The position numbers and the translations under genes were made by a program. Of a stretch of 64,000 nt of DNA, positions 18,704 to 39,351 are shown piece after piece (position 1 is the first letter of the stretch; each line of letters begins with the position of its first letter). Below the pieces are notes generated by a model. The model saw nothing but the letters and a program-made list of their open reading frames with translations. It was not told the origin of the DNA and searched no databases. The stretch comes from Escherichia phage vB_EcoM_G2494. The stretch is taken from sequence record MK327935.1; one strand, 5' to 3'.

Positions 18704-19524
18704 TTAGTCACCTCACCGAAAATTGTAAATTGTCTACGATTCTCATCGCCGAAAGATTCTACTACGTCGTTTACCTTGACGCAAGTCCCGCGCGGTAAAA
18801 TTACTTCACATTCGCAAGGGTTCCATGCAATGGACCCAACAACAAAACCTTTATGATCTTTTACATCAATCACCCATGATACATTACAAGAATGTTGCAT
18901 CTTTCCGGTCATTGATTCATATCGATTCTCACAATAAAGGCTAGTGCTGTTTGAAAGCCATCCTCCAAAGATGATCGGTGTCATGCTAGTAGATACAAAG
19001 TTTTTAAAGGTAAATTCCTTATCTTCAATAATACGCTCTATTGTCTGAATGTCAAGATGTTGACCGCGATAAAGAGTACCGTTTAACTTTTCGGTTTTAT
19101 CCATGACACAATCCATCAAATCAACAATCTCTGATATCTCATCGGTCATGTCTTCTTCCCCTAAGAGAGCACCATTTACCCATTCGTATTGTTCAGACAC
19201 ATAATCACAGATTGCATTATATTCTGCTGGGGTTATGTTGTTATGTTTGTAATGTTTGAATACATTATCTCCAAAGTCTTCGGAGTGTACTTCATACATC
19301 ACATTAATGATTTTCTTTACAAATCCATAATCTTGTGTCTCGCGCTCAAGGAAGCGGATAACCTTCACATAATCATCAAAGTTAATCTGATCGCTGATCA
19401 TTTCAGTGATCATGTAACCATTAATACCATCAATGTCATATGTTTCGATGTAATTATCCATACGTTCCATCATTGATTCGCGTGATTCTTCCGAAAGACG
19501 AAAATCCTGTAATTTCTTGAACAT
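18700..19524 (-). CDS. ADP-ribosyltransferase-like protein (Alt/Mod family paralog, 274 aa)
   Basis: R (LYRGQ), STS (FVSTSMT) and ExE (CECEVILPRG) motifs in the order seen in the Alt C-terminal domain. Confidence 0.6.
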   Translation of the reverse strand: MFKKLQDFRLSEESRESMMERMDNYIETYDIDGINGYMITEMISDQINFDDYVKVIRFLERETQDYGFVKKIINVMYEVHSEDFGDNVFKHYKHNNITPAEYNAICDYVSEQYEWVNGALLGEEDMTDEISEIVDLMDCVMDKTEKLNGTLYRGQHLDIQTIERIIEDKEFTFKNFVSTSMTPIIFGGWLSNSTSLYCENRYESMTGKMQHSCNVSWVIDVKDHKGFVVGSIAWNPCECEVILPRGTCVKVNDVVESFGDENRRQFTIFGEVTK

Positions 19525-19556
19525 TTTAAACCTCCCATATAACAGAAAACGGGGCT

Positions 19557-19585
19557 AGTATAAAACTAGTCCCCGTTTGAGTCAA
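19557..19585 (-). promoter_or_regulatory. early promoter with stem-loop (TTGACT-17-TATACT)
   Basis: Minus strand GTTGACT ... TATACT; GGGGACTAGT/ACTAGCCCC inverted repeat spans the -10. Confidence 0.5.
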
Positions 19586-19602
19586 CCATTATTTCTTAAA
19601 AA

Positions 19603-21654
19603 TTACATTTTAAATTTATCTGGCATTGCGTCTACCGATACCAGATCAGCGATAAGCTGACGTAGAGTTGCCTTATCTGCTTTCTTACGTTCGGTTTTAG
19701 CTTCGGTAATAAATCTGGAGAAAGACAGGTCAGAAGCAGGTTTAACAACACCTTCACGGATGAATGCATCACCGTCCGCGATCATCTCACCAGATTCTTG
19801 TAATGCTGCCAGTTCATTTTTGTTCATAATATGTGCCTCAATGTAATAAGTTTCTTGTGAATCCGTCGATGCCGTAGCACGAGTTACCGTATCAAAGGAT
19901 AACACAACACCGCGAGGAAGTAAAATCTCGCATTCTTTGTAAGCAAATGCTTTGTTACCTACTGGCAACACAGGGATGTTTTCCGCGCCAGCAATGGAGA
20001 AAGCAACATTAGCGCCACCTTCACCGCGAGAGCCAGCCATAGAATCAACACCAGCAACGGCACTAGCCACGTTTGCATTCCAGCCGCCAAAAATGTTAGG
20101 TGCAAGGGAAGTGCTCACATAGTTTTTAAAGTAAAACGCTTTTTGCTTACGTGCAGTTTCCCACATTTGCGACCGGAAGTCCATACCACGATACAGAATA
20201 GTACCCGGATCAAGTTTAACGCCATAGTTGGAGAAGGCATTATCCAGTGCATCACACATCTTGACCAATTCTTCTGGATCTGCGATGCCTTCAAACTCTT
20301 CCAGCTTACGGTCGGTTAGGAAGTTGTTCATATTGATGTATGCTGCATCGGCATATTCGCTCAACACAAAACCTTCCGCGCCTGGCAGATCAAGATCAAT
20401 ATTTGCCATCATTTCACCCATGTTGCTAGCAATTGCTTCAAACATACCGGAAGCAACATTACGTAGGGCATCGGTTTTAATCTGGGTGATATGACTACGC
20501 AGCATTTCAGCTTTTACATCTGCTGGCATAGACTGGTCTACTCGATCCATTGCCAGGGCGGTGATCTTGTTTTCGAATACTTCCTCGCTCATGATTTCTT
20601 TTAAGCGTTTGATTGATGCTGCGATAACTTCCGCAGACAACGGATCATATTGATCCTGAACTTTTACCAGTTCGCTTACTGCGTATTTTGCATCGGCTTC
20701 GCTTTCAAAAATAGTACGCATGAAACCATAGCGAGTGATAATATCACTTGTCCATTCATTCAGAGAACGGGCGGTTGAACGTTCTAAGGCTTGACGATCA
20801 ATCAGAGTATTAAACTGTTTCTTAGGTTCGGCTTCGGTGATATCTTCTTCCGGTTTAAGATTAATTTTTTCTGGATGATTCACATAGTCGCTGTTATAGG
20901 TCGCTTGAGTTTTCAGCATTTCTTCTTTAGTCAAACGAGATTTAGCCGCTACGCGTTGTTCCGCTTCCGCGTTTCGTTCTTCTTCTGACACCAGACTAGC
21001 CGCATACGCCTCATCTTTAGTCAGAGATTCACCAGTAGCCTTAGATACCCAGCGATCACCTAAATCACTTTCTACTTTAGTGAACAAGGAATCATCAAGT
21101 TTAATCCCTTTAATCTTATCAATCGCCATACCGCGACGTTTGACAACAACTAAAGCGATCTTTTTGCTGGTCATTACTTCCTGCTGGAATACTTCAAACT
21201 TCGGTGTACGACGCACCAAACGCTCTATAACGCGCTTAACCAGTTCGGTCTTACCTTTCATGCGGGATACGTTAAAACGGAACATAACAGCGTCTAATTG
21301 CGCTTTACGGGCTGTTTCCATAACCACATCAAAAGCACTTGCCATAACTGCAATCGGGTTATCGCCTAGACCATTTTTAAGCTGTACAATACGACCGCTT
21401 TTGTTCATTTCGCACAGTACAACATGTGCGGTCTTGTCACCCATACGAATGATTTTAGGTGTTTTGTTGGTGAAGTTACAAAGACGGACAATCACATCTT
21501 TATCGCGTGTCTGTACTGCAAAAAGCTGTTTAGGATTCTGCTTAGGCTTTAAGCACTGTACCGGAGCAATACTGCCAAAGTTTTCTTCCTCTTCCGTCAA
21601 CAGCCATTTCTCGAAAGATTCAATCATTAGATCGTCGATTTCTAAGTTAAACAT
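19603..21654 (-). CDS. alt: Alt ADP-ribosyltransferase (packaged early-acting ART)
   Basis: 683 aa; C-terminal YRGMDFRS ... YVSTSLAP ... YKECEILLPRG R-S-ExE motifs; position between 54 and 30 as in T4. Confidence 0.8.
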   Translation of the reverse strand: MFNLEIDDLMIESFEKWLLTEEEENFGSIAPVQCLKPKQNPKQLFAVQTRDKDVIVRLCNFTNKTPKIIRMGDKTAHVVLCEMNKSGRIVQLKNGLGDNPIAVMASAFDVVMETARKAQLDAVMFRFNVSRMKGKTELVKRVIERLVRRTPKFEVFQQEVMTSKKIALVVVKRRGMAIDKIKGIKLDDSLFTKVESDLGDRWVSKATGESLTKDEAYAASLVSEEERNAEAEQRVAAKSRLTKEEMLKTQATYNSDYVNHPEKINLKPEEDITEAEPKKQFNTLIDRQALERSTARSLNEWTSDIITRYGFMRTIFESEADAKYAVSELVKVQDQYDPLSAEVIAASIKRLKEIMSEEVFENKITALAMDRVDQSMPADVKAEMLRSHITQIKTDALRNVASGMFEAIASNMGEMMANIDLDLPGAEGFVLSEYADAAYINMNNFLTDRKLEEFEGIADPEELVKMCDALDNAFSNYGVKLDPGTILYRGMDFRSQMWETARKQKAFYFKNYVSTSLAPNIFGGWNANVASAVAGVDSMAGSRGEGGANVAFSIAGAENIPVLPVGNKAFAYKECEILLPRGVVLSFDTVTRATASTDSQETYYIEAHIMNKNELAALQESGEMIADGDAFIREGVVKPASDLSFSRFITEAKTERKKADKATLRQLIADLVSVDAMPDKFKM

Positions 21655-21722: not shown

Positions 21723-21935
21723 TTATAATGCACCATCGAGCAATTGCTCTAAGGTGTATCCTGAATAGTCTTTTTCAATCAGGATATATTTTCCTACTCG
21801 TTTAATACAACCGCGCATTTCAACGTATTCTGCGTAGTTGATGGTACGAGTTGTTCCATCTTCCAGTAATGCAGTACCGATTTCGTTAATGCGGTCATAA
21901 GTTACGTCGGTAATGATGATTTCGATGTTAGCCAT
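21723..21935 (-). CDS. hypothetical protein (70 aa)
   Basis: ATG with AAGGAG SD downstream of promoter 21972-22000. Confidence 0.55.
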   Translation of the reverse strand: MANIEIIITDVTYDRINEIGTALLEDGTTRTINYAEYVEMRGCIKRVGKYILIEKDYSGYTLEQLLDGAL

Positions 21936-21971
21936 TTGATACTCCTTAGTAGTTCGTTTCTGTATGTGTGT

Positions 21972-22000
21972 ATTATGATATACACCCTCTGTTATGTCAA
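21972..22000 (-). promoter_or_regulatory. early sigma70-type promoter (TTGACA-17-CATAAT) with upstream A-tract
   Basis: Read on minus strand. Confidence 0.6.
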
Positions 22001-22006
22001 CAACTT

Positions 22007-22186
22007 TTAGAACATTTTTGAAATTAATTCTGCTTTGATTTCGCAGAGAACATCTAAAGATTTCTCGTCACCCGCTTTTGCTGCTTCTGCTTGCATTTTT
22101 GAAATGGCTTCAATCTCAGTGCAATTATAAGCCGCTTGAACTTTAGCGATTGCGAGGATTGCCGATTCGATGGTTAAGTGTTTTAT
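22007..22186 (-). CDS. hypothetical protein, ATA at expected start position (possible pseudogene or non-canonical start)
   Basis: 59-codon open frame placed exactly like neighbouring genes behind AGGAGAATCAAAC, but start codon is ATA. Confidence 0.3.
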   Translation of the reverse strand: MKHLTIESAILAIAKVQAAYNCTEIEAISKMQAEAAKAGDEKSLDVLCEIKAELISKMF

Positions 22187-22218
22187 GTTTGATTCTCCTT
22201 TCGTTTCGGTATGTGTGT

Positions 22219-22247
22219 ATTATAGGGGATCGATGATCCCCTGTCAA
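22219..22247 (-). promoter_or_regulatory. early promoter, consensus TTGACA-17-TATAAT with perfect palindromic spacer GGGGATCATCGATCCCC
   Basis: Read on minus strand; A-tract UP element upstream. Confidence 0.7.
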
Positions 22248-22255
22248 CAACTTTT

Positions 22256-22774
22256 TTAGTTATTTTTTAATTGCTCATCTTGCAATAGGGCAATCACATG
22301 CTGGCGATGTTCTTCCGATTGAGGCACACCGAAAAAGTTTGTTTTGTAGAAATACTCTAATCGGTCTTCTCGTGTGCTCTCTTCCATCATGATCGCGGGT
22401 AGTCCGAGATTTCGGAAACGTCGCTTTTCTGCTGGCGTAAAATCACTGTAATACATCATAGAATCATCATTACCAGCAATGCTAAACTCATCCTTCATGA
22501 AGGAGAATATTGCGTTTAAACGCTGTTTACCGTCCACGATTTCGATCTCATAGCGAGAGCCATCATCAATCTTAGCCATTGCGATAGCACCAACCGGAAA
22601 ATCATTAATCAGGTTTTCGATAAACATACGTTTGTTTTCGGTGTCCCATACTAAAGGACGCTGATAATCTGGGTTCATGTTGATATAGCCATCTTCTAAC
22701 CATGCATCATAAACAGAGATGACAAAGTTTTTAGTATTGGTATAGTAACGGCGTTTAGGCGTTAAACGGTTCAT
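22256..22774 (-). CDS. DUF262 / ParB-like domain protein (172 aa)
   Basis: DYQRPLVW and DGKQR motifs; ATG at 22774 with AGGAG SD, 1 nt after upstream stop (ORF-track start 22810 overlaps the upstream gene). Confidence 0.6.
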   Translation of the reverse strand: MNRLTPKRRYYTNTKNFVISVYDAWLEDGYINMNPDYQRPLVWDTENKRMFIENLINDFPVGAIAMAKIDDGSRYEIEIVDGKQRLNAIFSFMKDEFSIAGNDDSMMYYSDFTPAEKRRFRNLGLPAIMMEESTREDRLEYFYKTNFFGVPQSEEHRQHVIALLQDEQLKNN

Positions 22775-22775
22775 G

Positions 22776-23105
22776 TTATAGTCTCCTGAATGGATCATCA
22801 CGTAAATCAATATCTTTTAAGAACTCATCCCATGAATGGCGGATATTGTTCTTAATTCTCCAGATAAGAGCAGGGATTGAACGCTCTCCCATCTGGAAGT
22901 ATGGATCATATGATCCGTATGCCCAATATGCTACTACAATTCCACAATCAGCGCAATAGTATTCTATTTCACTTGCTGGCGACAAAAGTCCATCAATATG
23001 ATCGGTGATCTTGCTTTCGATGTTATGGCTATGACAATCAGGGCAACGGATGCAATGACCTTGTTTATCGTAATTTGATGTTAGTGAATACTTAAACAAT
23101 CTCAT
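22776..23105 (-). CDS. Cys-rich zinc-ribbon protein (109 aa)
   Basis: CIRCPDCHSH ... CADCG cysteine pairs. Confidence 0.55.
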   Translation of the reverse strand: MRLFKYSLTSNYDKQGHCIRCPDCHSHNIESKITDHIDGLLSPASEIEYYCADCGIVVAYWAYGSYDPYFQMGERSIPALIWRIKNNIRHSWDEFLKDIDLRDDPFRRL

Positions 23106-23821
23106 TATAGATCCTTATTTGCTTCAAATACTGCCTTTGCGAATCCTCGCGGGGTAAGTGACCTTATAGTCTTTGTTTTCGTTCCTTTCCCGCCTAGCTT
23201 AGAATGCTGTTTACTGTACCCTTTATTAATCTGCAACGGTTTCTTTTCTGGCATTATAAAGCCTTGTCCGGTCCATAAGCAAGTCTTTTTTGGGTACATA
23301 TCACGGGCGGCAATATACTCAGGAAACGTAGGATGCTTATCATCTTCCGGCAAATAACCGCCATATTCCCACGGATGGAACATATAATCAGGCTTACGCC
23401 ACATGCTAGAGATAACGCTTACAGGATTCTCTATCATGTAGGGAACTCCTAGCCATTCACCCAAATAAGCGGTTATTTTGGCTGCCCTTACATCATGAAC
23501 TTGAATCAATGGTCCTTGTTCTCGTTTCTTTCGTTCAAAGTGCGCAGCGCCACTAACAGCTAAATTGGTGCATGGTGGGAATGCAAAGATAATATCCGGT
23601 TTCCCCCATTCAAGGTCCATTGCTCTTTCTAGCCAGTTAAAATCAATCCATGTGTTTACATAGGTAATGTTTGGATGTTCAAATCTGGTATTATACTTTT
23701 TGTATGTTCCGTGGTCGCCATCGTCAGCATTAAAGCAGATCACCTTATGACCTGCTTTAGCCCATTCTAACCCCATTATCCCCGATCCGTCAAAGTTACA
23801 GAATATTAATTTTTGTTTCAT
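23105..23821 (-). CDS. compact cytosine-C5 methyltransferase-like protein (238 aa)
   Basis: FxGxG (res 10-14), acidic FNADD (res 30-34), PPC (res 82-84) and ENP (res 131-133) with spacing like C5-MTase motifs I, II, IV, VI; no obvious target-recognition domain. Confidence 0.5.
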   Translation of the reverse strand: MKQKLIFCNFDGSGIMGLEWAKAGHKVICFNADDGDHGTYKKYNTRFEHPNITYVNTWIDFNWLERAMDLEWGKPDIIFAFPPCTNLAVSGAAHFERKKREQGPLIQVHDVRAAKITAYLGEWLGVPYMIENPVSVISSMWRKPDYMFHPWEYGGYLPEDDKHPTFPEYIAARDMYPKKTCLWTGQGFIMPEKKPLQINKGYSKQHSKLGGKGTKTKTIRSLTPRGFAKAVFEANKDL

Positions 23822-24063
23822 ATACGCCCCTTTAATCCAACACAGATTTTAGAAGGTTCTTTGCCGTGCCACATTAAGTAAAGTCCGTTAATGCGGCCTT
23901 GTTTTGTATATGATTCTTTTCTGATCTTCTTATAGTGTCGTGCTTCCTCAGCCGATTGTTTAGAATACCAATCATAAAGGAAGAGGCACAAAGGCCACCC
24001 ATTAGCGGCCTTAATGCAGTTATTAAGAAATTCCTTATTGCGTTTAATTAATTTTCTTTTCAC
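23818..24063 (-). CDS. hypothetical basic protein (81 aa, GTG start)
   Basis: GTG start overlapping upstream stop; part of coupled operon. Confidence 0.4.
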   Translation of the reverse strand: MKRKLIKRNKEFLNNCIKAANGWPLCLFLYDWYSKQSAEEARHYKKIRKESYTKQGRINGLYLMWHGKEPSKICVGLKGRI

Positions 24064-24311
24064 GCTGCCCCCATTGGTTTGATAGTAACAGAATCTAAAA
24101 GACCTTTGTTAGCCAGTTCGCGGCAAGTTTTCAGATCCGCAACTTCCCAGCCAGCCGCAATCAGGTTATCAATGAGGCTGTTAGCAACTTCTTCGCTCAT
24201 GAAAGAGCACTGTTTGCCGATGGTGTAGCGTACACGCTGTAATTTCAGTTTACGGAAGCCTTTAACGTTCAGGTCTTTAGCGATTTTCTTTGCGGTTTCG
24301 ATGTTAGCCAT
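24060..24311 (-). CDS. hypothetical protein (83 aa)
   Basis: First gene behind promoter 24352-24380; AGGAG SD. Confidence 0.55.
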   Translation of the reverse strand: MANIETAKKIAKDLNVKGFRKLKLQRVRYTIGKQCSFMSEEVANSLIDNLIAAGWEVADLKTCRELANKGLLDSVTIKPMGAA

Positions 24312-24351
24312 TGTTTGATTCTCCTAAGTGGTATCTCGTCTTGATGGTTGT

Positions 24352-24380
24352 ATTGTAGGGGAGTTATCCTCCCCTGTCAA
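24352..24380 (-). promoter_or_regulatory. early promoter TTGACA-17-TACAAT with palindromic spacer GGGGAGTTATCCTCCCC
   Basis: Read on minus strand. Confidence 0.6.
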
Positions 24381-24394
24381 CACTTTTTATAAAA

Positions 24395-24562
24395 TTATTT
24401 GTTAATTTCCGGTGCGTTGCTTGGATAGTAACCTTCTTTAACACCCAGGTATTTCGCAACCATCCCTACAATCTTCTGTGCTACTACAATGTCAAATTTC
24501 AGATAATCTTCGCCGTGGGTTTCAATGATATATGCTTCACATGCTGCTTTAGTCTCGAACAT
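24395..24562 (-). CDS. small protein (55 aa), duplicate copy A
   Basis: MFETKAACEAY ...; about 89 percent identical to product of 28188-28355. Confidence 0.55.
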   Translation of the reverse strand: MFETKAACEAYIIETHGEDYLKFDIVVAQKIVGMVAKYLGVKEGYYPSNAPEINK

Positions 24563-24595
24563 TTTGATTCTCCTATTTCGTTTCGTTATGTGTGT

Positions 24596-24625
24596 ATTAT
24601 AGGGGATCTCCCGATCCCCGTCAAC
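24596..24625 (-). promoter_or_regulatory. early promoter (TTGACG-18-TATAAT) with palindromic spacer GGGGATCGGGAGATCCCC
   Basis: Read on minus strand. Confidence 0.55.
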
Positions 24626-24637
24626 AACTTTTTAAAA

Positions 24638-25111
24638 TTATTTGCACCAAATTCGAATGATTTCGTCTCGTTCAAATTTTTGCCAGATTACTCGGTCGCC
24701 CGCTGCCATAATCCTGACAAATCCAGTTATATTTCCGGTGTACTTGCTTTTAGTTTCTGCATCATATTCAAAGAATGGAGCTTTAAGATCGCTAAACTCA
24801 TCTTTTCCCACAAACTTCATAACATGACGGTGTGCGTAATATTCGCTTCTTAGTGTTGTTGTGATAGTTCCGTCATCATTTGATTTCAGATGCAATTCGG
24901 CATCTTCATAAAGACTTGCATCTCGTTGTTTACTTTCGATACCATCATTATATGTTGATTTGGTTGCACTCCAACATTGATATGTCTTATCTACATTTTC
25001 GATCTTTTCCTGTGTCATGTCAAAAAGCGGCGCAACCTTTTTCTTAGCCGCGTGCGCAACGTTGGTCATAGACAGTGCCGCAACAACCGCAATAGCAATA
25101 ATTTTCTTCAT
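24638..25111 (-). CDS. secreted/periplasmic protein with signal peptide (157 aa)
   Basis: MKKIIAIAVVAALSMTNVAHA signal peptide; AAAGGAG SD. Confidence 0.6.
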   Translation of the reverse strand: MKKIIAIAVVAALSMTNVAHAAKKKVAPLFDMTQEKIENVDKTYQCWSATKSTYNDGIESKQRDASLYEDAELHLKSNDDGTITTTLRSEYYAHRHVMKFVGKDEFSDLKAPFFEYDAETKSKYTGNITGFVRIMAAGDRVIWQKFERDEIIRIWCK

Positions 25112-25172
25112 AATATCATCTCCTTTGGTTTATATGGCGGGAGTATCTTAGCAATACTCCCTTAATACTATA

Positions 25173-25454
25173 TTATTCGTGATTAGTTTCGATGTTGTGC
25201 ATTTTGCACCAGTTCAGCCAATCGCCCAGATCTTGATAGTTGATGCTTTTATCTGCTGCCATCGTTTTTGTCTTGATACCCATATGTGCGTTATGAGTAA
25301 GCATTTTTACAGTGAACTCAATTTTATCACCTTTAGCTTTAACATCAACCAGTTTGGTCCACTGGCTACCAGCGCCGCGAATGTTCATACCAACGATGTT
25401 TCCGATGTATGCTTCTTTGTTTTTCAGGATTTCGGTTGCTTTGATGAATTTCAT
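25173..25454 (-). CDS. hypothetical protein (93 aa)
   Basis: ATG with GGAGAATCAAAA spacing typical of this region. Confidence 0.55.
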   Translation of the reverse strand: MKFIKATEILKNKEAYIGNIVGMNIRGAGSQWTKLVDVKAKGDKIEFTVKMLTHNAHMGIKTKTMAADKSINYQDLGDWLNWCKMHNIETNHE

Positions 25455-25487
25455 TTTTGATTCTCCAGTTCGTTTCGGTATGGGTGT

Positions 25488-25516
25488 ATTATGCTATGTT
25501 CTTACTTTGGTGTCAA
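25488..25516 (-). promoter_or_regulatory. early promoter TTGACA-17-CATAAT
   Basis: Read on minus strand. Confidence 0.55.
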
Positions 25517-25524
25517 CAACTTTT

Positions 25525-25794
25525 TTAGATATTTTCAGAAATAAATTTTAAAACTTGACGTAAATGTTTCTCGTCTTTGATAGTCGCCGGAAGTTCTTCT
25601 TTTACTTCCTGTGCAAGATAGATATTTCCGTTCCAAGTGAAAGATCCGTCTTCGTTTACGCGATAGCTGAACATCCACTCGCAATCATTTTCGATTTCAT
25701 ATACACACAGAAGGGTGTAATCTTCAAAGCTATTGATTTCAAGGTCGAAGCCGTGACGTTTTGCAAAGTTGGTAGTGGTTTTAGTCAGTGCCAT
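25525..25794 (-). CDS. hypothetical protein (89 aa)
   Basis: ATG start behind promoter 25835-25863. Confidence 0.55.
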   Translation of the reverse strand: MALTKTTTNFAKRHGFDLEINSFEDYTLLCVYEIENDCEWMFSYRVNEDGSFTWNGNIYLAQEVKEELPATIKDEKHLRQVLKFISENI

Positions 25795-25834
25795 TGTTTG
25801 ATTCTCCTAAGTGGTATCTCGTTTCGATGTGTGT

Positions 25835-25863
25835 ATTATGCTATAGGCGTGATCTGGTGTCAA
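25835..25863 (-). promoter_or_regulatory. early promoter TTGACA-17-CATAAT
   Basis: Read on minus strand. Confidence 0.55.
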
Positions 25864-25920
25864 TGCCTTTTTTAAAATTTTATGCAATAAAAAAGCCGAC
25901 ACTAAGGTCGGCTAATAAAA

Positions 25921-26229
25921 TCATTTAGACAAATAATCATTCTGTGCAATCCGGTCGGCGTATGCTGGTGTTATGTCAATCGCCAGCACTTTAACGCGTG
26001 CTTTCTTGCGACCTGGGTTTTCTCGTAACCAGTGCTCATGACCGTGAACATTTTTATACTGCGATGCTTCTTCGAAGGTACGGATCGGACCTGGGTAATC
26101 AGCGTAAAGGATCTCTAGATCTTCGGTGATGTAAAAATATACATCGTAATTGCTGTTCTCTAGCTTAAGCAGAGACTTTCGGAACATTGGGAGATTTTCG
26201 CGGGTAAATTCAAAGATATTATCTTTCAT
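25921..26229 (-). CDS. HxHxW-motif paralog family member A (102 aa)
   Basis: YFYITEDLEILY ... HGHEHW ... VLAIDI shared with six neighbours. Confidence 0.55.
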   Translation of the reverse strand: MKDNIFEFTRENLPMFRKSLLKLENSNYDVYFYITEDLEILYADYPGPIRTFEEASQYKNVHGHEHWLRENPGRKKARVKVLAIDITPAYADRIAQNDYLSK

Positions 26230-26279
26230 AGTATTATCCTCAATAGTTGGATGAAAAGGGGGGCTTAACGCCCCGTATA

Positions 26280-26567
26280 TTAAAACAGTCCTTCCTGTAC
26301 ACCGTAGTAGAGTTCATCGCTGATAATTTCATTAATGCGACGGTGTGCATATTCCTGATTTGCGAAGTTGTCAGCAAGTTCTACTTTAGTTTCGCCGTCA
26401 TGAGTCCATTTAGTGATAACTTTACCATCTGCAAATTTGAAGTTGAACTCTTTAGCTACCGCATCGCGTACCAGACGTGCAAACTTATTGTTGCGGATTG
26501 CATTGTCGGTTTCGTGTTCAGCGTGAGCGAATTTGTTAACTTTCAGAGTGATAGTAATGTATGCCAT
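26280..26567 (-). CDS. hypothetical protein, KEFN-motif paralog 1 (95 aa)
   Basis: RLVRDAVAKEFNFK; paralog of 29845-30156. Confidence 0.5.
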   Translation of the reverse strand: MAYITITLKVNKFAHAEHETDNAIRNNKFARLVRDAVAKEFNFKFADGKVITKWTHDGETKVELADNFANQEYAHRRINEIISDELYYGVQEGLF

Positions 26568-26613
26568 AATTTGATTCTCCTAGTTAGAAAGTGTATCTCG
26601 TTTCGATGGGTGT

Positions 26614-26642
26614 ATTATGCTATACACCCGATCTTATGTCAA
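26614..26642 (-). promoter_or_regulatory. early promoter TTGACA-17-CATAAT
   Basis: Read on minus strand. Confidence 0.55.
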
Positions 26643-26648
26643 CACTTT

Positions 26649-26927
26649 TTATAAAATAATTTTTTGATATTTTTCTATGATGTTTGTGTAGGTCACATCA
26701 ACCGCGAGCACCGTTGCTTCGAATCCACCGTTTAGCCAATGGCTATGATCGTGATCGTTAAAGAAACCGAGGCCAGTGCGAAGACCTTCTTTATATTCGG
26801 CGCGTACATTCAGTTTGTCGTCGATAAACAGATAAAACCATGAATTTTTACTAGGATTGATGATACAACCTTTCAGATTAGGGAGAATATCACGACTAAG
26901 AATAAACTTATCACCTACTTTGAACAT
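26649..26927 (-). CDS. HxHxW-motif paralog family member B
   Basis: HDHSHW ... VLAVDV; ATG at 26927 with GAGGA SD (ORF-track start 26942 is GTG). Confidence 0.5.
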   Translation of the reverse strand: MFKVGDKFILSRDILPNLKGCIINPSKNSWFYLFIDDKLNVRAEYKEGLRTGLGFFNDHDHSHWLNGGFEATVLAVDVTYTNIIEKYQKIIL

Positions 26928-26931
26928 AATA

Positions 26932-27252
26932 TTAGTCCTCACTTATAAGGTCAAACCAATTGTTTTTCGCATAATGCTTAATGCGTGCTTGATCTGCTTC
27001 CGCTGGTGATAGATTCCATGCGATCACTACAACTTCTGACGCATCGTCATCCGTTTCTGATATCCAATGATTGTGATTCATACAGTTATTTGCTATCGCG
27101 TGAGCAAATGATCTCATTACTGGAGACGTATAATCATAGTAACGGATTTTCAGATTTTCATCAACGTACAAATAGATCGTATAAGGTTTATATTCAGTAA
27201 CCAGTAACAGACAGTTACGCAATTCTGGGAAAATCTTTTTAGTTAATTTCAT
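26932..27252 (-). CDS. HxHxW-motif paralog family member C (106 aa)
   Basis: YLYVDENLKIRY ... NHNHW ... VVVIAW. Confidence 0.5.
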   Translation of the reverse strand: MKLTKKIFPELRNCLLLVTEYKPYTIYLYVDENLKIRYYDYTSPVMRSFAHAIANNCMNHNHWISETDDDASEVVVIAWNLSPAEADQARIKHYAKNNWFDLISED

Positions 27253-27454
27253 AGTCTATTTCTCCGTAATACACGGTAATCCATTTTTCTTCATACTTTG
27301 TATCTTTCCAACACACAATCCCGTTTACTGTGCAATCTTTGGAATTGACGAATGATTCATATTGTTCTGCGTCTTCCATCATTGCATGAGCGGTCTTTTC
27401 ATCGAATATATCGCAGATCGCTTTATATGCTCAATAATCTTTAAATTTGCTCAT
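27239..27454 (-). pseudogene. paralog of 27457-27666 with in-frame TGA at codon 8 (27431-27433)
   Basis: Identical first 7 codons (MSKFKDY), then TGA, then 63 further open codons; no alternative start with SD. Confidence 0.45.
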
Positions 27455-27456
27455 AA

Positions 27457-27666
27457 TTAAGACCACTCAAGAGTTTTTGAAAACACATCTATCCATTGTT
27501 GAGTATATGCGGTTTCTTTCCATGATACAATACCAGTAGAATAATGGTTTTTGTTTCCAGAAAAGGACGGGCATTTTGATGCGTCTTCCATCATCTTTTC
27601 GGCGAACTCTGGTTCGTATACTCGCAAGATCTGTTGATATGCTTTGTAGTCTTTAAATTTGCTCAT
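27457..27666 (-). CDS. hypothetical protein (69 aa)
   Basis: ATG start; intact paralog of 27239-27454. Confidence 0.5.
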   Translation of the reverse strand: MSKFKDYKAYQQILRVYEPEFAEKMMEDASKCPSFSGNKNHYSTGIVSWKETAYTQQWIDVFSKTLEWS

Positions 27667-27931
27667 AATCGTTAACTACCTTATCAGCTTCTTTTATTGT
27701 TTTTACATCAACTGCGATAACCCGTAAAGGTTCGTCATGGTTCCACCAATGATCGTGAATATCGGCTTGTGATTTATCACCAAAGGAATCACGAATATCA
27801 TTTTTACATTTATAGCTAATGTGACCTTCATAGTCAACATAAAGGTAATTATCGAAAATCGGCGTTTTTAAGATCATACCGAAAAATCTTTCTTTGTGTG
27901 TCTTATCCAGTGTTGCAGTAATTCGCATCAT
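27653..27931 (-). CDS. HxHxW-motif paralog family member D (92 aa)
   Basis: YLYVDYEGHISY ... HDHWW ... VIAVDV; AAGAGGAA SD. Confidence 0.5.
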   Translation of the reverse strand: MMRITATLDKTHKERFFGMILKTPIFDNYLYVDYEGHISYKCKNDIRDSFGDKSQADIHDHWWNHDEPLRVIAVDVKTIKEADKVVNDYEQI

Positions 27932-27943
27932 AATATATTCCTC

Positions 27944-28123
27944 TTAGAAAGGGATGGTCATTTCTTGAGCTTGTACATTCTCGTTAGGATTAAACTTCAT
28001 CCAACCGATATTGTCTACCAGCATATGCACATTTTTATCATATCCTACGTGAGTAGTCAACACTAAATGTGATTTACCTTCAACGATGATTTCCATGTAC
28101 TTCTGAACTTCGATAGCTTTCAT
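27944..28123 (-). CDS. small hypothetical protein (59 aa)
   Basis: Hand-translated; ATG behind GGAGAATCAAA; below ORF-track size cutoff. Confidence 0.4.
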   Translation of the reverse strand: MKAIEVQKYMEIIVEGKSHLVLTTHVGYDKNVHMLVDNIGWMKFNPNENVQAQEMTIPF

Positions 28124-28155
28124 TTTGATTCTCCGTTTGTTGTCTTGATGGGAGT

Positions 28156-28184
28156 ATCTTACTACTCCCTTTAATCATTGTCAA
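28156..28184 (-). promoter_or_regulatory. putative early promoter (TTGACA-17-TAAGAT) with stem-loop
   Basis: GGGAGTAGTAAGATACTCCC hairpin overlaps the -10. Confidence 0.4.
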
Positions 28185-28187
28185 CGA

Positions 28188-28355
28188 TTATTTGTTAATT
28201 TCCGGTGCGTTGCTTGGATAGTAGCCTTCTTTAACACCCAGATATTTTGCAACCATTCCGGTGATCTTCTGTGCTACTACGATATCGAATTTCAGGTAGT
28301 CTTCACCGTGGTTTGCTACAATGTATGCTTCGCATTCTGCTTTAGTCTGGAACAT
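28188..28355 (-). CDS. small protein (55 aa), duplicate copy B
   Basis: MFQTKAECEAY ...; ATG behind AGGAGAATCAAAA; ORF-track N-terminal extension is the promoter region. Confidence 0.55.
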   Translation of the reverse strand: MFQTKAECEAYIVANHGEDYLKFDIVVAQKITGMVAKYLGVKEGYYPSNAPEINK

Positions 28356-28389
28356 TTTTGATTCTCCTATATCTCGTTGGTATGTGTGT

Positions 28390-28418
28390 AGTATAGGGGA
28401 TCGGTGATCCCCTGTCAA
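28390..28418 (-). promoter_or_regulatory. early promoter TTGACA-17-TATACT with palindromic spacer GGGGATCACCGATCCCC
   Basis: Read on minus strand. Confidence 0.6.
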
Positions 28419-28428
28419 CAACTTTTTT

Positions 28429-28737
28429 TTATTCTTCATCTTCATCATTATCTTTATATGCGTACTTCATAAATTTGTCTGCTACTTCGTCCGCGTTTTC
28501 AGGTTCTACGTCTGACGCTAGGACAACAGCTAGTTCGGTTTTGTCGTTTCCATCATACCAATGATTATGAGTGTCGTTTTCTTCGATATAAAACGAATCA
28601 GTTGGAGTTGTGCGACAATATACGTCTAAATTCCCATCGATATAAAAGATCCAATCCGAATACAAAATGATTGTTTTAGCAAGATTTTTATTGTCTCTCA
28701 CAAAAGGTTCTGAGACAAATAGCTTAGTTTGTTCCAT
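28429..28737 (-). CDS. HxHxW-motif paralog family member E (acidic C-terminus)
   Basis: DWIFYIDGNLDVY ... THNHW ... LAVVLA; ATG at 28737 with GAGGA SD (ORF-track start is GTG). Confidence 0.5.
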   Translation of the reverse strand: MEQTKLFVSEPFVRDNKNLAKTIILYSDWIFYIDGNLDVYCRTTPTDSFYIEENDTHNHWYDGNDKTELAVVLASDVEPENADEVADKFMKYAYKDNDEDEE

Positions 28738-28753
28738 AACATTTTCCTCAAAA

Positions 28754-28945
28754 TTATACAGCTTCGTAAACTTCCCAATGTCCAGCGCCAACACGCTTAA
28801 CGAAAAGGTTTTCTTTGATGTTATTCATAAACGTCTGGATGGATTTAATGCGGTTTGAAGGTTTCCAGTCTTCGTTGGAATTGCGTCGATACATCATAAC
28901 ATTACCAGTTCGCTTATATTCAGCAACCATTTTAAGACCATACAT
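28754..28945 (-). CDS. hypothetical protein (63 aa)
   Basis: ATG start downstream of promoter 28994-29022. Confidence 0.45.
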   Translation of the reverse strand: MYGLKMVAEYKRTGNVMMYRRNSNEDWKPSNRIKSIQTFMNNIKENLFVKRVGAGHWEVYEAV

Positions 28946-28993
28946 AATATTATCATCAATTTGTGGGAGAGTATTACCCTCCCGATTATTGTT

Positions 28994-29022
28994 ATACTAC
29001 ATTACGCAAAATGGCGTGTCAA
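28994..29022 (-). promoter_or_regulatory. early promoter TTGACA-17-TAGTAT embedded in 3' end of upstream gene
   Basis: Read on minus strand; followed by GGGAG ... CTCCC hairpin. Confidence 0.45.
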
Positions 29023-29305
29023 TACTTCTTTTTGCTGTTCCGCTAAGATTCTCGATCTCTCCTGGCATAACATCAACCGCCAGAACTTCTACAACATCCT
29101 CTGATCCTAACCAGTGAGTATGACCTTTGTAGAACTTGATATCCCATTTATCGCTATCGCTAGCCCACCACACATCACCGTCTATAAAGTTGATGTAAAG
29201 CACACTACGACACATTGAATTAGTTACTTTCAATACTGCGCCTTTCATCTCTTCCACGGTATGGTCTTCCATTTTGAAGACCTCGCCTACCTTAACTTTT
29301 GCCAT
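28997..29305 (-). CDS. HxHxW-motif paralog family member F
   Basis: VLYINFIDGDVWW ... GHTHW ... VLAVDV; ATG at 29305 chosen by alignment with paralogs, weak SD. Confidence 0.45.
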   Translation of the reverse strand: MAKVKVGEVFKMEDHTVEEMKGAVLKVTNSMCRSVLYINFIDGDVWWASDSDKWDIKFYKGHTHWLGSEDVVEVLAVDVMPGEIENLSGTAKRSIDTPFCVM

Positions 29306-29306
29306 G

Positions 29307-29573
29307 TTACATGTTCCGAATATGTTTAGATGCATCTTCCAGTTCGTCGATAGTGACACTGTGAGCCAGTAAGTGTACTGGTTGTGGTTCTTCACCTTCC
29401 ATAGTATTGATCAGATGACCGTTTCCTGGGTGGAATGTATCGTTGCCGTTCCAAATAGCATACACATCATCTTCTGTTACGTAGATAATAAGTCCAATCG
29501 GTGATTCTGGTAATTGAAAAATTTTACCCACTGCATCTTTGCGATTGTCTACGATATCTTTGACTGTCTTCAT
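29307..29573 (-). CDS. divergent member G of HxHxW paralog family (88 aa)
   Basis: LIIYVTEDDVYAIW ... HPGNGH ... VHLLAHSV; AGAGAGG SD. Confidence 0.45.
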   Translation of the reverse strand: MKTVKDIVDNRKDAVGKIFQLPESPIGLIIYVTEDDVYAIWNGNDTFHPGNGHLINTMEGEEPQPVHLLAHSVTIDELEDASKHIRNM

Positions 29574-29592
29574 TTAGTTACCTCTCTTTAAA

Positions 29593-29772
29593 TTACATCA
29601 CAATCACGCCAGCCGTAGAAAGTTGATGTTTCAACTGAGCATTTTCTGCTACTGTCAAATCAATAATTTCTTGTGACGCTGCAATCATATAGCCATTGGT
29701 GATATTGTTTTGCATCAGTTCAATGGTTTCTTCGTTGTAGCGGATTTTAGCGATGATTTCGTTGAAGTTCAT
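29593..29772 (-). CDS. small hypothetical protein (59 aa)
   Basis: Hand-translated; ATG behind AGGAGAATCAATT. Confidence 0.4.
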   Translation of the reverse strand: MNFNEIIAKIRYNEETIELMQNNITNGYMIAASQEIIDLTVAENAQLKHQLSTAGVIVM

Positions 29773-29806
29773 AATTGATTCTCCTAGTTCGTTTCGGTAT
29801 GTGTGT

Positions 29807-29836
29807 ATTATAGGGGAGTTTAACCTCCCCTGTCAA
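29807..29836 (-). promoter_or_regulatory. early promoter (TTGACA-18-TATAAT) with palindromic spacer GGGGAGGTTAAACTCCCC
   Basis: Read on minus strand. Confidence 0.55.
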
Positions 29837-29844
29837 CAACTTTT

Positions 29845-30156
29845 TTAAAGTTTTTCCATGATAACGGTCATAATTACATCTTCTGCGCGAGCGGTCAGAT
29901 TATCAGCGTCAGCATGTGGGCGGTTGGTTGTTACAGAGATAACACCGTTGCGCACTGGTTTGATATTGATATCAAGATGATCCGCGAAACGTTCGCCAGT
30001 TACAGAATGAATTTTGGTGTTAAATTCTTTTGCCAGTGCCTTGCGAACTTCACGAATCAGGATAGCGTTTTTCAGTTGGTTCTCCGCGCTCATGGTCTTC
30101 TGGGTGTTCATGGTTCCGTCGAAGTCAATCATTGGCAGCGTTACGATGTATTTCAT
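29845..30156 (-). CDS. hypothetical protein, KEFN-motif paralog 2 (103 aa)
   Basis: REVRKALAKEFNTK; paralog of 26280-26567. Confidence 0.5.
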   Translation of the reverse strand: MKYIVTLPMIDFDGTMNTQKTMSAENQLKNAILIREVRKALAKEFNTKIHSVTGERFADHLDINIKPVRNGVISVTTNRPHADADNLTARAEDVIMTVIMEKL

Positions 30157-30201
30157 TTTTGATTCTCCGTTTAAGAAAGTGTGTTTCGTTTTGATGTGTG
30201 T

Positions 30202-30230
30202 AGTATAGGGGATACGTGATCCCCTGTCAA
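30202..30230 (-). promoter_or_regulatory. early promoter TTGACA-17-TATACT with palindromic spacer GGGGATCACGTATCCCC
   Basis: Read on minus strand. Confidence 0.6.
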
Positions 30231-30323
30231 CAACTTTTTTGAATTATTTTTTCATGAGCTTAATGGCTTCTTCCATAGCCAGCACATTTCGATAGTTAGG
30301 GTATCGTGTTAGATCGTCATACA

Positions 30324-38993: not shown

Positions 38994-39034
38994 CTTGATA
39001 CTCCTTAGTAAGTTAGTTTCGTTTCGATGGGGGT

Positions 39035-39282: not shown

Positions 39283-39315
39283 TTTGATTCTCCTTTGTTT
39301 CGTTTCGATGGGGGT

Positions 39316-39344: not shown

Positions 39345-39351
39345 CTACTTT

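Follow-up and report, generated by a model that had tools for sequence, protein, structure and literature searches.

The question raised by the 64,000-nt window analyzed here (Escherichia phage vB_EcoM_G2494, record MK327935.1) is what the promoter-like cassettes repeated between the small, mostly orphan genes at positions 21972-30230 are, and what they do. They are very likely the PeSL (promoter-early stem-loop) cassettes of RB49/phi1-type coliphages, published as composite regulatory cassettes of phi1 and RB49 (Arbiol et al. 2010, PMC2839356). Because PeSLs were first described in this same genome region, the repeats are a correct rediscovery of a known element and not a new one.

Identity of the Repeated Cassettes

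The phage belongs to Krischvirus, the RB49/phi1-like T4-type coliphages, and the window shares 94-98% identity with genomes of this group, including Phi1 and RB49. Positions 21972-30230 form the hyperplastic region between alt and the DNA ligase gene, which is colinear with phi1 ORF185-ORF212, where PeSLs were defined and tested, and also with GEC-3S, in which promoters are annotated at the same sites. One-to-one alignment with the cassettes of eight relatives and of reference RB49 revealed that those of the window are position-for-position orthologues of the Phi1 and RB49 cassettes. The sequence-only reading had matched them to RB49-type PeSLs and had proposed comparing the RB49 and phi1 genomes; group membership, region and cassette-by-cassette orthology bear this match out.

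Number, Distribution and Anatomy

The motif TTGAC-N15-19-TAYAATACA was matched seven times, always on the minus strand, and never in 100 shuffles. A search profile built from the obvious copies returned 16 hits with E values of 3e-10 to 3e-17 and one at 2e-4, every one on the minus strand, that of the genes; 11 of these profile-positive cassettes lie within 21972-30230 and six elsewhere (Table 1). An independent sigma-70 scanner applied to 19000-31000 placed ten cassettes among its eleven matches of 11-12/12. Beyond the 11, the region holds one divergent and one decayed copy. At least ten minus-strand copies had been noted here by sequence inspection; they are present at the coordinates given, and all the extra copies listed elsewhere at that stage (19585, 39063, 39344, 39623, 42451, 47312 and 47695) are real. 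The claim that nearly every small early gene is flanked was, however, overstated: from alt to the HNH gene, a cassette stands at only 11 of 28 gene junctions (13 of 28 counting the divergent and decayed copies), and genes at cassette-free junctions form tightly packed multi-gene runs.

Table 1. Cassettes and related units in the window; a single -35 position is its first base.
Feature	Coordinates	Strand	-35 and spacer	Hairpin or terminator	-10	SD and start	Remarks
ORF210-homologue cassette	30154..30246	-	30230-30225	palindrome AGGGGATCACGTATCCCCT 30225-30207	TATACT 30207-30202	GGAGAATCAAA; ATG 30156	orthologue of PeSL211/210
ORF209 cassette	29770..29847	-	29836; 18-nt spacer	palindrome 29831-29812	TATAAT 29812-29807	ATG 29772	hairpin type unlike that of Phi1/GEC-3S at same site
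ORF207 divergent cassette	28943..29040	-	TTGACA 29022; 17-nt spacer	GGGAGGGTAATACTCTCCC 28983-28965, downstream of -10	TAGTAT 28999-28994		no conserved leader or SD block; missed by profile
ORF205 cassette	28353..28431	-	28418	spacer palindrome 28413-28395	TATACT	ATG 28355	orthologue of PeSL206/205
ORF204 cassette	28121..28190	-	28184	GGGAGTAGTAAGATACTCCC across -10, 28169-28150		ATG 28123	
ORF198 cassette	26565..26651	-	26642	8-bp stem GGGTGTAT/ATACACCC across -10	CATAAT	ATG 26567	compensatory variant GGGGATAT/ATATCCCC in relatives
ORF194 terminator + cassette	25792..25923	-	25863	canonical terminator 25913-25894, then T-run, just upstream; promoter hairpin-free	CATAAT 25840-25835	ATG 25794	sole remaining copy of ~97-nt repeat flanking ORF195/196 in RB49
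ORF193 cassette	25452..25527	-	25516	no stable hairpin	CATAAT 25493-25488	ATG 25454	spacer unchanged, likewise hairpin-free, in 8/8 relatives compared there
ORF192-allele decayed cassette	25109..25175	-	none recognisable	GGGAGTATTGCTAAGATACTCCC 25161-25139, includes -10	TAAGAT	ATG 25111	TTGAAA at this place in reference RB49
ORF191 cassette	24560..24640	-	TTGACG 24624	palindrome GGGGATCGGGAGATCCCC 24619-24602	TATAAT	ATG 24562	
ORF190 cassette	24309..24397	-	24380	spacer palindrome 24375-24357	TACAAT	ATG 24311	
ORF186-homologue cassette	22184..22258	-	22247	spacer palindrome 22242-22224	TATAAT	ATA 22186-22184	start is ATG in relatives
ORF185 cassette	21933..22009	-	22000	weakened, across -10	CATAAT 21977-21972	GGAGTATCAA; ATG 21935	one G·A mismatch in hairpin vs relatives
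Overlapping terminator-promoter after alt	19522..19605	-	TTGACT 19585	28-nt hairpin 19576-19549 across -10, then TTTT	TATACT	ATG 19524	no conserved leader
Three cassettes, small ORF225-228 variable patch	38991..39673	-	39623, 39344, 39063	39623: terminator hairpin 39661-39638 upstream; 39344 and 39063: GGGGGTA/TACCCCC stems across -10			
Spacer-palindrome cassette	42389..42462	-	TTGACG 42451	GCGGGGAGAAATCCCCGC 42446-42429	TATAAT	GAGG; ATG 42391	
Two promoter-plus-leader copies	47251..47715	-	47695, 47312	no stable hairpin		GGAGG or GAGG	

The cassettes run in the order A-tract with the upstream stop codon, TTGACA, spacer, TATAAT-like -10, A-rich leader, GGAGAATCAAA as the Shine-Dalgarno (SD) block, and ATG. 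Among the 11 copies in the region, the stop codon of the upstream gene lies 3-14 nt 5′ of the -35 in ten, the spacer measures 17 nt in ten and 18 nt in one, GGAGAATCAA is exact in ten, and the -10 stands 32-46 nt from the start codon, with a nearly unstructured leader of 26-40 nt and about 50% A between the -10 and the SD block. Six copies carry G4…C4 spacer palindromes (dG -9.3 to -13.1), three have a hairpin spanning the -10 (28184, 26642 and, weakly, 22000), and no hairpin was found within the promoters at 25516 and 25863. The sequence-only reading had described this layout accurately, with the upstream stop inside the UP element, a 16-18 bp spacer, and a palindrome in the spacer or a stem-loop across the -10. 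Since the promoters at 25516, 25863, 47312 and 47695 lack a hairpin, the stem-loop is not obligatory.

The Stem-Loop

The hairpin is under selection. Pairing holds in 97-100% of stem cells, but in 29-76% after the partner is shifted along; three pair positions show compensatory double changes (TA<->GC, GC<->AT and AT<->GC), and the loops vary freely. Six distinct variants create G·U wobbles that are valid on the sense strand only, and no variant creates A·C. Together, the compensatory changes and the sense-only wobbles point to a role of the stems at the RNA level. The hairpin always ends at or before -1 of its cassette; therefore, it is missing from the cassette's own mRNA and is present only in read-through RNA from upstream.

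The cassettes resemble intrinsic (Rho-independent) terminators in that a GC-rich stem of 7-8 bp, closed by a short loop, follows a stop codon, but no U-tract was found after the cassette hairpins, whose tails are UAUAAUACAC or AUCGAAACGA, and a terminator scan picked up none of the spacer hairpins. Canonical T-run terminators lie nearby at 21715-21701, 25913-25894 and 26274-26260. In 2010, a lacZ fusion demonstrated promoter activity of PeSL206/205, and the PeSL211/210 stem-loop, placed after a promoter, lowered downstream lacZ, cutting reporter expression as much as rrnB T1 (Arbiol et al., PMC2839356). As the U-tract is missing and true T-run terminators are separate, the label "terminator" rests on one reporter construct from the literature.

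That published reduction by an isolated stem-loop also bears on the proposal that the GC-rich palindrome acts as DNA and not as an RNA hairpin, being either an operator at which a dimeric regulator, of phage or host origin, would shut early promoters, or a cruciform or spacer-rigidity element that tunes promoter strength. Nearly invariant G4…C4 arms in the spacer class, located exactly between -35 and -10, so that a protein bound there would block RNA polymerase, would suit such a role, as would the absence of the hairpins from the cassette's own transcript; moreover, RB49-type phages have neither MotA nor middle promoters and thus need some other early shut-off. Yet the centre is free to vary, both in sequence and in length (3-6 nt), the stem past G4 shows covariation and not conservation, the hairpin register relative to -35 and -10 differs by class, and hairpins are absent from some otherwise identical promoters. 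The sense-strand G·U bias, which covers all single-substitution variants, has consequences only in RNA or in a single DNA strand that is extruded. A DNA-level function is accordingly unlikely, and of the two options named in the sequence-only reading, a protein-binding site or an RNA hairpin, the data favour the latter and disfavour a protein operator.

Recombination at the Cassettes

Comparison with ten relatives yielded eight indels with 16 endpoints. Five of the eight have both ends in cassettes and leave a functional hybrid cassette, while three show non-cassette microhomology (3-16 nt) at one or both ends. Where RB49, Sf20 and JK32 lack the ORF186 module, they carry a hybrid cassette whose crossover falls in the shared leader, and JK32 also has hybrids in place of the missing ORF191 and ORF210. 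At the ORF192 indel, the boundaries are the AATAAT stop/A-tract edges of two cassettes, and in RB49 two terminator-plus-cassette repeats of about 97 nt flank ORF195/196. Crossovers fall in at least four places: at the AATAAT edge, where hairpin and -10 meet, in the CAT that follows the -10, and in the leader. The duplicate genes ORF191 and ORF205 (24395-24562 and 28188-28355) agree at 145 of 168 nt, with 14 synonymous against 6 non-synonymous codon differences. Their homology begins in the A-tract of the upstream cassette, spans cassette and coding sequence and ends exactly at the stop codon, so the duplicated unit is "cassette + ORF", in line with the cassette junctions predicted for this pair. 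For cassettes of this region, inverse PCR has also revealed mini-circles consisting of a circular ORF with one chimeric cassette.

The modular gene shuffling suggested earlier gains from the hybrid cassettes but has weak statistics once intergenic location is controlled. The 11 of 16 endpoints located in cassettes represent strong enrichment against an any-base null (p=1.7e-6) and marginal enrichment against a fairer gene-junction null, in which surviving breakpoints must fall at junctions (13/28 expected, p=0.06). Presence/absence variation affects 4 of 7 PeSL-flanked genes and 3 of 20 others (p=0.05). The recombination role of the cassettes is thus weaker than their name suggests.

These margins, the three events at non-cassette sites and the scatter of crossovers over A-tract, hairpin, -10 and leader, which general recombination would be expected to produce, leave some room, though less than an even chance, for the cassettes being nothing more than strong early promoters that share a leader and an SD, with incidental recombination and no special "mobile cassette" biology. 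On this view, indels would be seen there because selection spares only breakpoints between genes, and a 100-nt repeat of any kind would have the same effect. This cassette flavour is, in addition, confined in IMG/VR to Krischvirus-size contigs, so that nothing suggests movement between phage groups. Such an account must nevertheless face the five events that regenerated a functional hybrid, duplicated units that are exactly cassette + ORF, and the circular products; it differs in emphasis and not in identity, the elements being PeSLs either way. At the other extreme, the cassettes could be sites of an integron-like, site-specific system, with hairpins equivalent to attC and mini-circles to excised cassettes. 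Imperfect palindromes do bound single promoter-proximal ORFs, circular molecules of the corresponding composition are reported, and the choice between "homologous or site-specific" is left open by Comeau et al. 2014 (PMC4122927). However, crossovers at no fewer than four different cassette positions, recombination of hairpin-less cassettes (e.g., the 25863 repeat), a region in which no gene resembling an integrase was noticed and the very active general recombination system of T4-type phages make this highly improbable.

Proposed Mechanism

As PeSLs, the cassettes would each constitute a self-contained early-expression unit. The upstream stop codon is embedded in an A-rich, UP-like tract, followed by a near-consensus sigma-70 promoter (TTGACA, 17 nt, TATAAT-like) that unmodified E. 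coli RNA polymerase could use right after infection. The hairpin formed in read-through RNA would most likely attenuate or terminate transcription, or otherwise mark the 3′ end of the upstream message, and thereby insulate each unit, which the leader, the GGAGAATCAAA block and ATG complete. Near-identical sequence of about 100 nt returns in direct orientation at intervals of a few hundred bases, which would also make the cassettes substrates for homologous or homeologous recombination that deletes, inserts or duplicates "cassette + ORF" modules and leaves a functional hybrid cassette. For this phage, we infer the transcription start position, the action of the hairpin on read-through RNA and the early timing; the literature searched yielded no transcript data for any Krischvirus. 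The RB49 early-promoter consensus is reported, with reference to Desplats 2002, to agree with 5′-end mapping.

The targets of the T4 RegB/S1 endoribonuclease lie in early translation-initiation regions (Durand et al. 2006, PMC1702504). Located in the SD of early genes and predicted to be single-stranded, GGAGAATCAAA is a candidate site of this kind that matches GGAGRAYARAA, the T4 consensus, at 10 of 11 positions. RB49 encodes a RegB, which is diverged. The mismatch in GGAGAATCAAA is a C at position 8, where T4 strongly prefers A. Conservation of the block may follow simply from its being a good SD within a repeated unit. A link between RegB/S1 and the SD block is absent from the PeSL papers.

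Comparison with Known Systems

Short repeated intergenic motifs bound single small genes in integron attC gene cassettes and in the start-associated sequences and stoperators of mycobacteriophages, and circular single-gene intermediates are known for integrons. The present cassettes differ in having neither a dedicated recombinase nor a fixed crossover point, and in that their repeat amounts to a full promoter plus translation-initiation region rather than a site for a recombinase or repressor.

The cassettes show every defining feature of the phi1/RB49 PeSLs (PMC2839356): an AT-rich tract that contains the upstream stop, a near-perfect sigma-70 promoter, a Gn-loop-Cn stem-loop that lies in the spacer or spans the -10, a 3′ end formed by SD and ATG, a position ahead of ORFans in hyperplastic regions, and indels marked by hybrid cassettes; window copies are orthologous to PeSLs 193/192, 206/205 and 211/210. 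The differences are strain-level only: the -35 of the 193/192 cassette is gone, the hairpin at 22000 is mismatched, ORF186 starts with ATA, ORF192 is a 58%-identical allele, and hairpin types differ from Phi1 at the orthologous sites 29836, 30230 and 26642. Stem covariation with G·U pairs, the missing U-tract and the RegB/S1-like SD block are small additions to the known PeSLs.

The PeSLs of T4/PST and KVP40/nt-1 (Comeau et al. 2014, PMC4122927) likewise combine an early promoter with a stem-loop and cluster in hyperplastic regions with differential ORFs. They differ in their promoters (TTTACW...TAYWAT, or TTGYVH...TAWWAT) and stems (AGnA-loop-TCnT, or A3-4G3-loop-C3T3-4), and nt-1 also has Mot-box versions. 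The near-perfect TTGACA/TATAAT promoters with Gn-loop-Cn stems found here are of the RB49-type flavour.

Identity and Genomic Setting of the Element

The 8.4 kb around the cassettes are 94-98% identical to more than 60 Krischvirus genomes (RB49, Phi1, GEC-3S, G2248, Sf20 and others) and colinear with ORF185-ORF212 of Phi1. Small hypothetical genes, every one of them on the minus strand, extend here from alt, the RNA polymerase ADP-ribosyltransferase gene that forms one border of the block, to the HNH endonuclease/DNA ligase genes. An element of exactly this make-up was reported in phi1 and RB49 by Arbiol et al. in 2010 and named PeSL (PMC2839356). In it, an AT-rich region that holds the stop codon of the preceding gene is combined with a consensus sigma-70 promoter, a stem-loop of the form Gn-loop-Cn in any of five positions, and the Shine-Dalgarno (SD) sequence and start codon of the following gene; the roughly 52 copies per genome lie mostly in hyperplastic regions 5' of ORFans. 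Because all of these sequence-level features are present in the window, the sequence-only reading, which had matched the repeats to the PeSL cassettes of RB49-type phages, was correct. Judged by sequence, the cassettes are PeSLs, an element that is not new and was characterised in this very locus.

The cassettes, designated here by the first base of the -35 hexamer, pair one-to-one with cassettes at matching gene junctions in Phi1, RB49 and six further Krischviruses. Cassette 28418 is the orthologue of PeSL206/205, which was tested as a promoter together with PeSL193/192, and 30230 is the orthologue of PeSL211/210, the stem-loop of which was tested as a terminator, all in the same region as the window cassettes (PMC2839356). 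Promoter activity, terminator/attenuator activity and mini-circles have been reported in the literature for these orthologous cassettes (PMC2839356). "ORFan192" (RB49p192), the basis of the published recombination model and mini-circle PCRs (PMC2839356), is represented in the window by a 58%-identical allele, a 157-aa signal-peptide gene (24638-25111) that is missing from most relatives. A literature search returned no usable Krischvirus transcriptome or map of transcription start sites (TSS); 5'-end mapping in a 2002 RB49 paper is known through a citing paper. An Rfam search at E<=1 gave just one chance sub-threshold snoRNA match, and an IMG/VR scan for the spacer palindrome, returning two Krischvirus-size contigs only, gave no evidence of spread outside the genus.

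Detection and Anatomy of the Cassettes

The repeated cassettes are visible in the sequence itself and were borne out by a strict pattern, a profile and a sigma-70 scanner, which agree. TTGAC-N15-19-TAYAATACA has seven matches, all on the minus strand, compared with none in 100 shuffles. A profile derived from the evident copies gave 16 matches with E values of 3e-10 to 3e-17 and one at 2e-4, again on the minus strand only, and between 19000 and 31000 ten cassettes are within the scanner's eleven matches at 11-12 of 12 positions. Promoter-like sites in the region show a modest excess (47 versus 34.4±6.7 in shuffles); since this hexamer count barely exceeds the shuffles, the signal resides in the near-perfect sites and their extended conservation.

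Eleven of the 17 window copies, all profile-positive, lie in the 9-kb alt-ligase region (21972-30230), and the remainder occupy small variable patches. The additional copies proposed outside this region (19585, 39063, 39344, 39623, 42451, 47312 and 47695) are real, except that the last two carry no stable hairpin; 39623 is the true -35 start of its cassette in the ORF225-228 patch. The statement that cassettes flank nearly every small early gene was too strong: they occupy 11-13 of the 28 junctions from alt to the HNH gene, and many genes there lie in tightly packed runs without a cassette. Seven of ten downstream proteins scanned had no Pfam match, GmrSD_N alone passing the curated cut-off.

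In all 11 copies the hexamers lie on the gene strand and match sigma-70 at 10-12 of 12 positions. They are 17 nt apart except in one copy, where the spacer measures 18 nt. The stop codon of the preceding gene, which the sequence-only reading usually placed inside the UP element, was indeed located 3-14 nt 5' of the -35 in ten of the 11, the exception being 25863, where it is 57 nt away with a terminator in between. The -10 is followed after 32-46 nt by the start codon, and GGAGAATCAA or GGAGTATCAA sits 4-8 nt 5' of the latter in every copy. The GGAGAATCAA block occurs 11 times in 64 kb, on the minus strand only and each time as a cassette SD. Leaders counted from the inferred TSS are 26-40 nt long, about 50% A and almost unstructured (MFE -1.5 to -6.5 kcal/mol).

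Near the hoc/24.3 region, aside from these copies, the minus strand carries two perfect TTGACA-16-TATAAT promoters, at 5574-5601 and at 6146-6222; the 6173 promoter has a canonical terminator (6208-6189) on its 5' side and a partial leader match, ACACATCGA, on its 3' side. These are possibly degenerate cassettes missed by the profile. In G2248 (~10500-10604), the orthologue of cassette 30230 has 40 bp duplicated internally in tandem (hairpin, -10 and leader start), and thus has two hairpins and two -10 elements but a single -35.

Coordinates of cassettes and paralogous genes, and structural events between the window and its relatives
Feature	Position	Strand	Basis or remark
Profile-positive cassettes (-35 starts)	30230, 29836, 28418, 28184, 26642, 25863	minus	profile
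Profile-positive cassettes (-35 starts)	25516, 24624, 24380, 22247, 22000	minus	profile
Divergent cassette (-35 start)	29022	minus	hairpin downstream of -10
Decayed cassette 5' of 157-aa gene	hairpin 25161-25139	minus	TAAGAT present, without -35
Seven tandem paralogues	25921-26229, 26649-26927, 26932-27252, 27653-27931, 28429-28737, 28997-29296, 29307-29573	minus	
Event 1: ORF186 module missing in RB49, Sf20, JK32			single hybrid cassette
Event 2: ORF189.1 missing in G2248, JK32	23818-24063	minus	16-nt overlap, non-cassette junction
Event 3: ORF192 presence/absence			bounded by AATAAT stop/A-tract edges of two cassettes
Event 4: 88-aa paralogue in window and G2248 only	29307-29573		non-cassette junction
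Event 5: ORF211 presence/absence			cassette edge at one end
Event 6: ORF210 missing in JK32, SFHK24			hybrid cassette joined in shared CCCCTATACTACACACAT
Event 7: ORF191 missing in JK32			hybrid cassette left behind
Event 8: ORF195/196 block			RB49: two flanking ~97-nt terminator+cassette repeats; window: one mosaic copy

Position, Selection and Possible Function of the Hairpin

Six copies carry a G4...C4 palindromic spacer (dG -9.3 to -13.1), and in three the stem runs across the -10. A hairpin lies 5' of the -35 at 39623 and at 25863, the latter having no promoter hairpin and a canonical terminator directly upstream. Overall, dG values of the cassette hairpins range from -9 to -13 and z scores from -2.7 to -5.5; no stable stem-loop was found at 25516, 47312 or 47695. 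The hairpin-free ORF193 cassette (25488-25516) has a spacer, CCAAAGTAAGAACATAG, that is identical in all 8 relatives examined, a conservation left without explanation if the element depends on its hairpin.

The sequence-only reading had proposed that the palindrome might be either a regulatory-protein binding site or an RNA hairpin. The stems were compared over sets of distinct cassette cores, first 77 and later 102, gathered from the window and from ten relatives. In the two classes spanning the -10, stems are 97-100% paired versus 29-76% when the 3' partner is slid. Compensatory double changes occur at three pair positions (TA/GC, GC/AT and AT/GC), and one and the same cassette reads GGGTGTAT/ATACACCC in the window and JK32 versus GGGGATAT/ATATCCCC in six other phages. 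In the spacer class the arms are kept and the loops are free in both sequence and length (ACA, ACC, ATC, GCC, GGC, GGT, GGGA, CACGT, GATAA, GTTAAA and GAAA). Variants with one internal non-Watson-Crick pair comprise six sense-strand G·U, zero A·C and one other, and the five G·U variants folded are 2.4-5 kcal/mol more stable as sense than as antisense. This wobble bias (p=0.016 for six independent events, about 0.06 for only four) is suggestive only, because not all six events are independent. Taken together, compensatory changes, free loops and G·U bias favour a structure in the sense RNA over a sequence-specific DNA operator, so that of the two proposals the RNA hairpin is preferred to the protein site.

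Every cassette hairpin ends at or before -1 relative to the inferred TSS and is therefore outside the cassette's own transcript, which implies action on read-through RNA alone. An intrinsic terminator has a U-rich tract directly after a GC-rich hairpin, whereas no U-tract was found after the cassette stems, the tails of which are TATAATACAC or ATCGAAACGA. A terminator scanner requiring at least 5 T in 8 called no spacer hairpin and found three canonical terminators in the same region. Consequently, the "terminator" label depends on one published reporter experiment, and attenuator, pause site and 3'-end barrier are alternative readings. As to the canonical terminators, the hairpin GGGGCGTTAAGCCCC (15 nt) followed by a T-run occurs twice, at 21701-21715 after ORF185 and at 26260-26274 after ORF198, and the third is at 25913-25894.

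A Possible Link to RegB/S1

Of the 11 positions of the T4 RegB/S1 consensus GGAGRAYARAA, the invariant SD block GGAGAATCAAA agrees with 10 and departs from one, having C at position 8; the consensus bars C only from positions 5, 6 and 9 (PMC1702504). The GGAG block has a mean unpaired probability of 0.63 in the predicted leaders versus 0.44 at control GGAG sites (p=1.7e-4). RB49 has an annotated regB, RB49p094, which lies outside the window, and its RegB has been reported in the literature to be active. Neither PeSL paper (PMC2839356, PMC4122927) mentions RegB or covariation. This resemblance suggests a putative link of GGAGAATCAAA to RegB/S1; the block could also be kept only because it binds ribosomes well and is part of a unit that is repeated.

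One tentative and rather doubtful reading is that the cassette may serve as an RNA-level "pulse" module, combining a promoter, a hairpin in read-through RNA and GGAGAATCAAA as a Krischvirus RegB/S1 site. The hairpin, on the evidence of the compensatory changes and the sense-strand G·U wobbles, would be selected in sense read-through RNA; having no U-tract, it may work as an attenuator or a 3'-end barrier instead of terminating transcription in the classical way. Each orphan gene would bring its own fast-on switch, the consensus sigma-70 promoter, and a fast-off switch, a RegB cut in the SD predicted between GG and AG of GGAGAAUCAAA. RegB cleavage at the following cassette and the hairpin upstream might then jointly delimit discrete monocistronic mRNAs.

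Neighbouring Genes

Several genes beside the cassettes show changes of their own. The ORF186 homologue starts with ATA (22184-22186, minus strand) behind an intact cassette, where all five relatives that keep the gene have ATG; probably the gene was inactivated recently, or the sequence contains an error. The ORF211 homologue contains a 16-bp tandem duplication (30323-30354, minus strand; CCACCCTTAAGCGAAT twice) relative to G2248 and Sf20, and because this shifts the frame, an 86-aa ORF (30329-30589) and a 40-aa remnant (30244-30366) stand in place of some 114 aa. An apparent pseudogene is the ORF201 homologue (27239-27454, minus strand), which starts ATGAGCAAATTTAAAGATTATTGA, codon 8 being an in-frame TGA. 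The paralogue upstream of it (27457-27666) shares the first five codons and reads through, and relatives vary at this place by 9-nt indels.

The seven tandem paralogues, of about 90-105 aa and 20-34% identical, share H-x-H-W and V-L-A-x-D-V motifs and are mostly joined without cassettes. Pfam gave no match above the curated cut-off for them, and one weak match below it. A cassette drives the four-gene run at 22256-23821 (minus strand), which encodes a GmrSD_N/DUF262 protein (E=5e-20), a small protein whose weak zinc-ribbon match stays below threshold and, by relatives' annotation, a DNA methyltransferase; the small ORF189.1 lies upstream of it.

Gene Duplication and Recombination

The suggested comparison of duplicate genes gave a clear outcome. 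Homology between ORF191 (24395-24562) and ORF205 (28188-28355) extends from the A-tract of the upstream cassette to the stop codon, with 145 of 168 nt and 50 of 55 aa identical and 14 synonymous and 6 non-synonymous codon differences. Beyond that codon the homology breaks off at once, and the cassettes that follow the two genes differ in hairpin class. These limits indicate that a "cassette + ORF" unit was duplicated, in agreement with the prediction of the mini-circle model. A distinctive leader variant is common to ORF210 and ORF198, and the two genes are, from their sequences, probably distant paralogues (Smith-Waterman shuffle z=6.2; relation not detected by BLASTP). ORF194/ORF190 was rejected as a duplication, the leaders being identical and the genes without detectable relation. 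A common leader on unrelated genes points to leader exchange, in which cassette parts swap independently of genes.

The region was aligned to eight relatives, hidden indels were sought and every junction was settled at base level, yielding eight structural events. Five have both ends in cassettes and hybrid products; the hybrid of event 1 joins the left half of cassette 22247 to the right half of 22000 within their shared leader. Eleven of the 16 indel endpoints fall in cassettes, which is highly significant against an any-base null (p=1.7e-6) but marginal (p=0.06) against a gene-junction null in which 13 of 28 junctions carry a cassette. The latter is the fairer baseline, since surviving breakpoints must sit at gene junctions. 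Presence varies in four of seven genes with cassettes on both sides versus three of 20 others (p=0.05). Thus the idea of cassette-driven gene shuffling gains from the hybrid cassettes and keeps only marginal enrichment on the fairer baseline; the cassettes do have a part in recombination, though a less exclusive one than their published name suggests.

An apparent 1.1-kb replacement at 24642..25816 relative to RB49-like genomes was rejected, as at base level it resolves into the separate ORF192 and ORF195/196 events. OZ035808 ("Krischvirus RB49", 5477-5835) is without ORF192 and has a phi1-type single cassette; ORF192 is present in the reference RB49 genome, NC_005066 (1435-2053). OZ035808 is either another isolate under the species name or a stock with the published cassette-to-cassette ORF192 deletion.

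Implications and Comparison with Known Systems

PeSLs equip every accessory gene of a T4-type phage with expression signals and, as dispersed homology, allow "cassette + gene" modules to be lost, gained or duplicated with neighbours undisturbed, which is one explanation of hyperplastic regions. For the engineering of therapeutic Krischviruses they offer strong early promoters in ready-made form, together with safe sites for insertion. The small additions made here, namely structure-preserving covariation, a sense-strand wobble bias, absent U-tracts and a RegB-like SD block, suggest that the cassette has received too little study at the RNA level. The recombination role merits a re-test against the gene-junction null, and the RNA role of hairpin and SD deserves experiments.

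An integron-like cassette relies on a dedicated recombinase and a fixed crossover point, and PeSL cassettes differ on both counts. No integrase is annotated in the region, and crossover intervals differ from event to event and are scattered over the cassette, so that general homologous or homeologous recombination fits and a site-specific mechanism does not.
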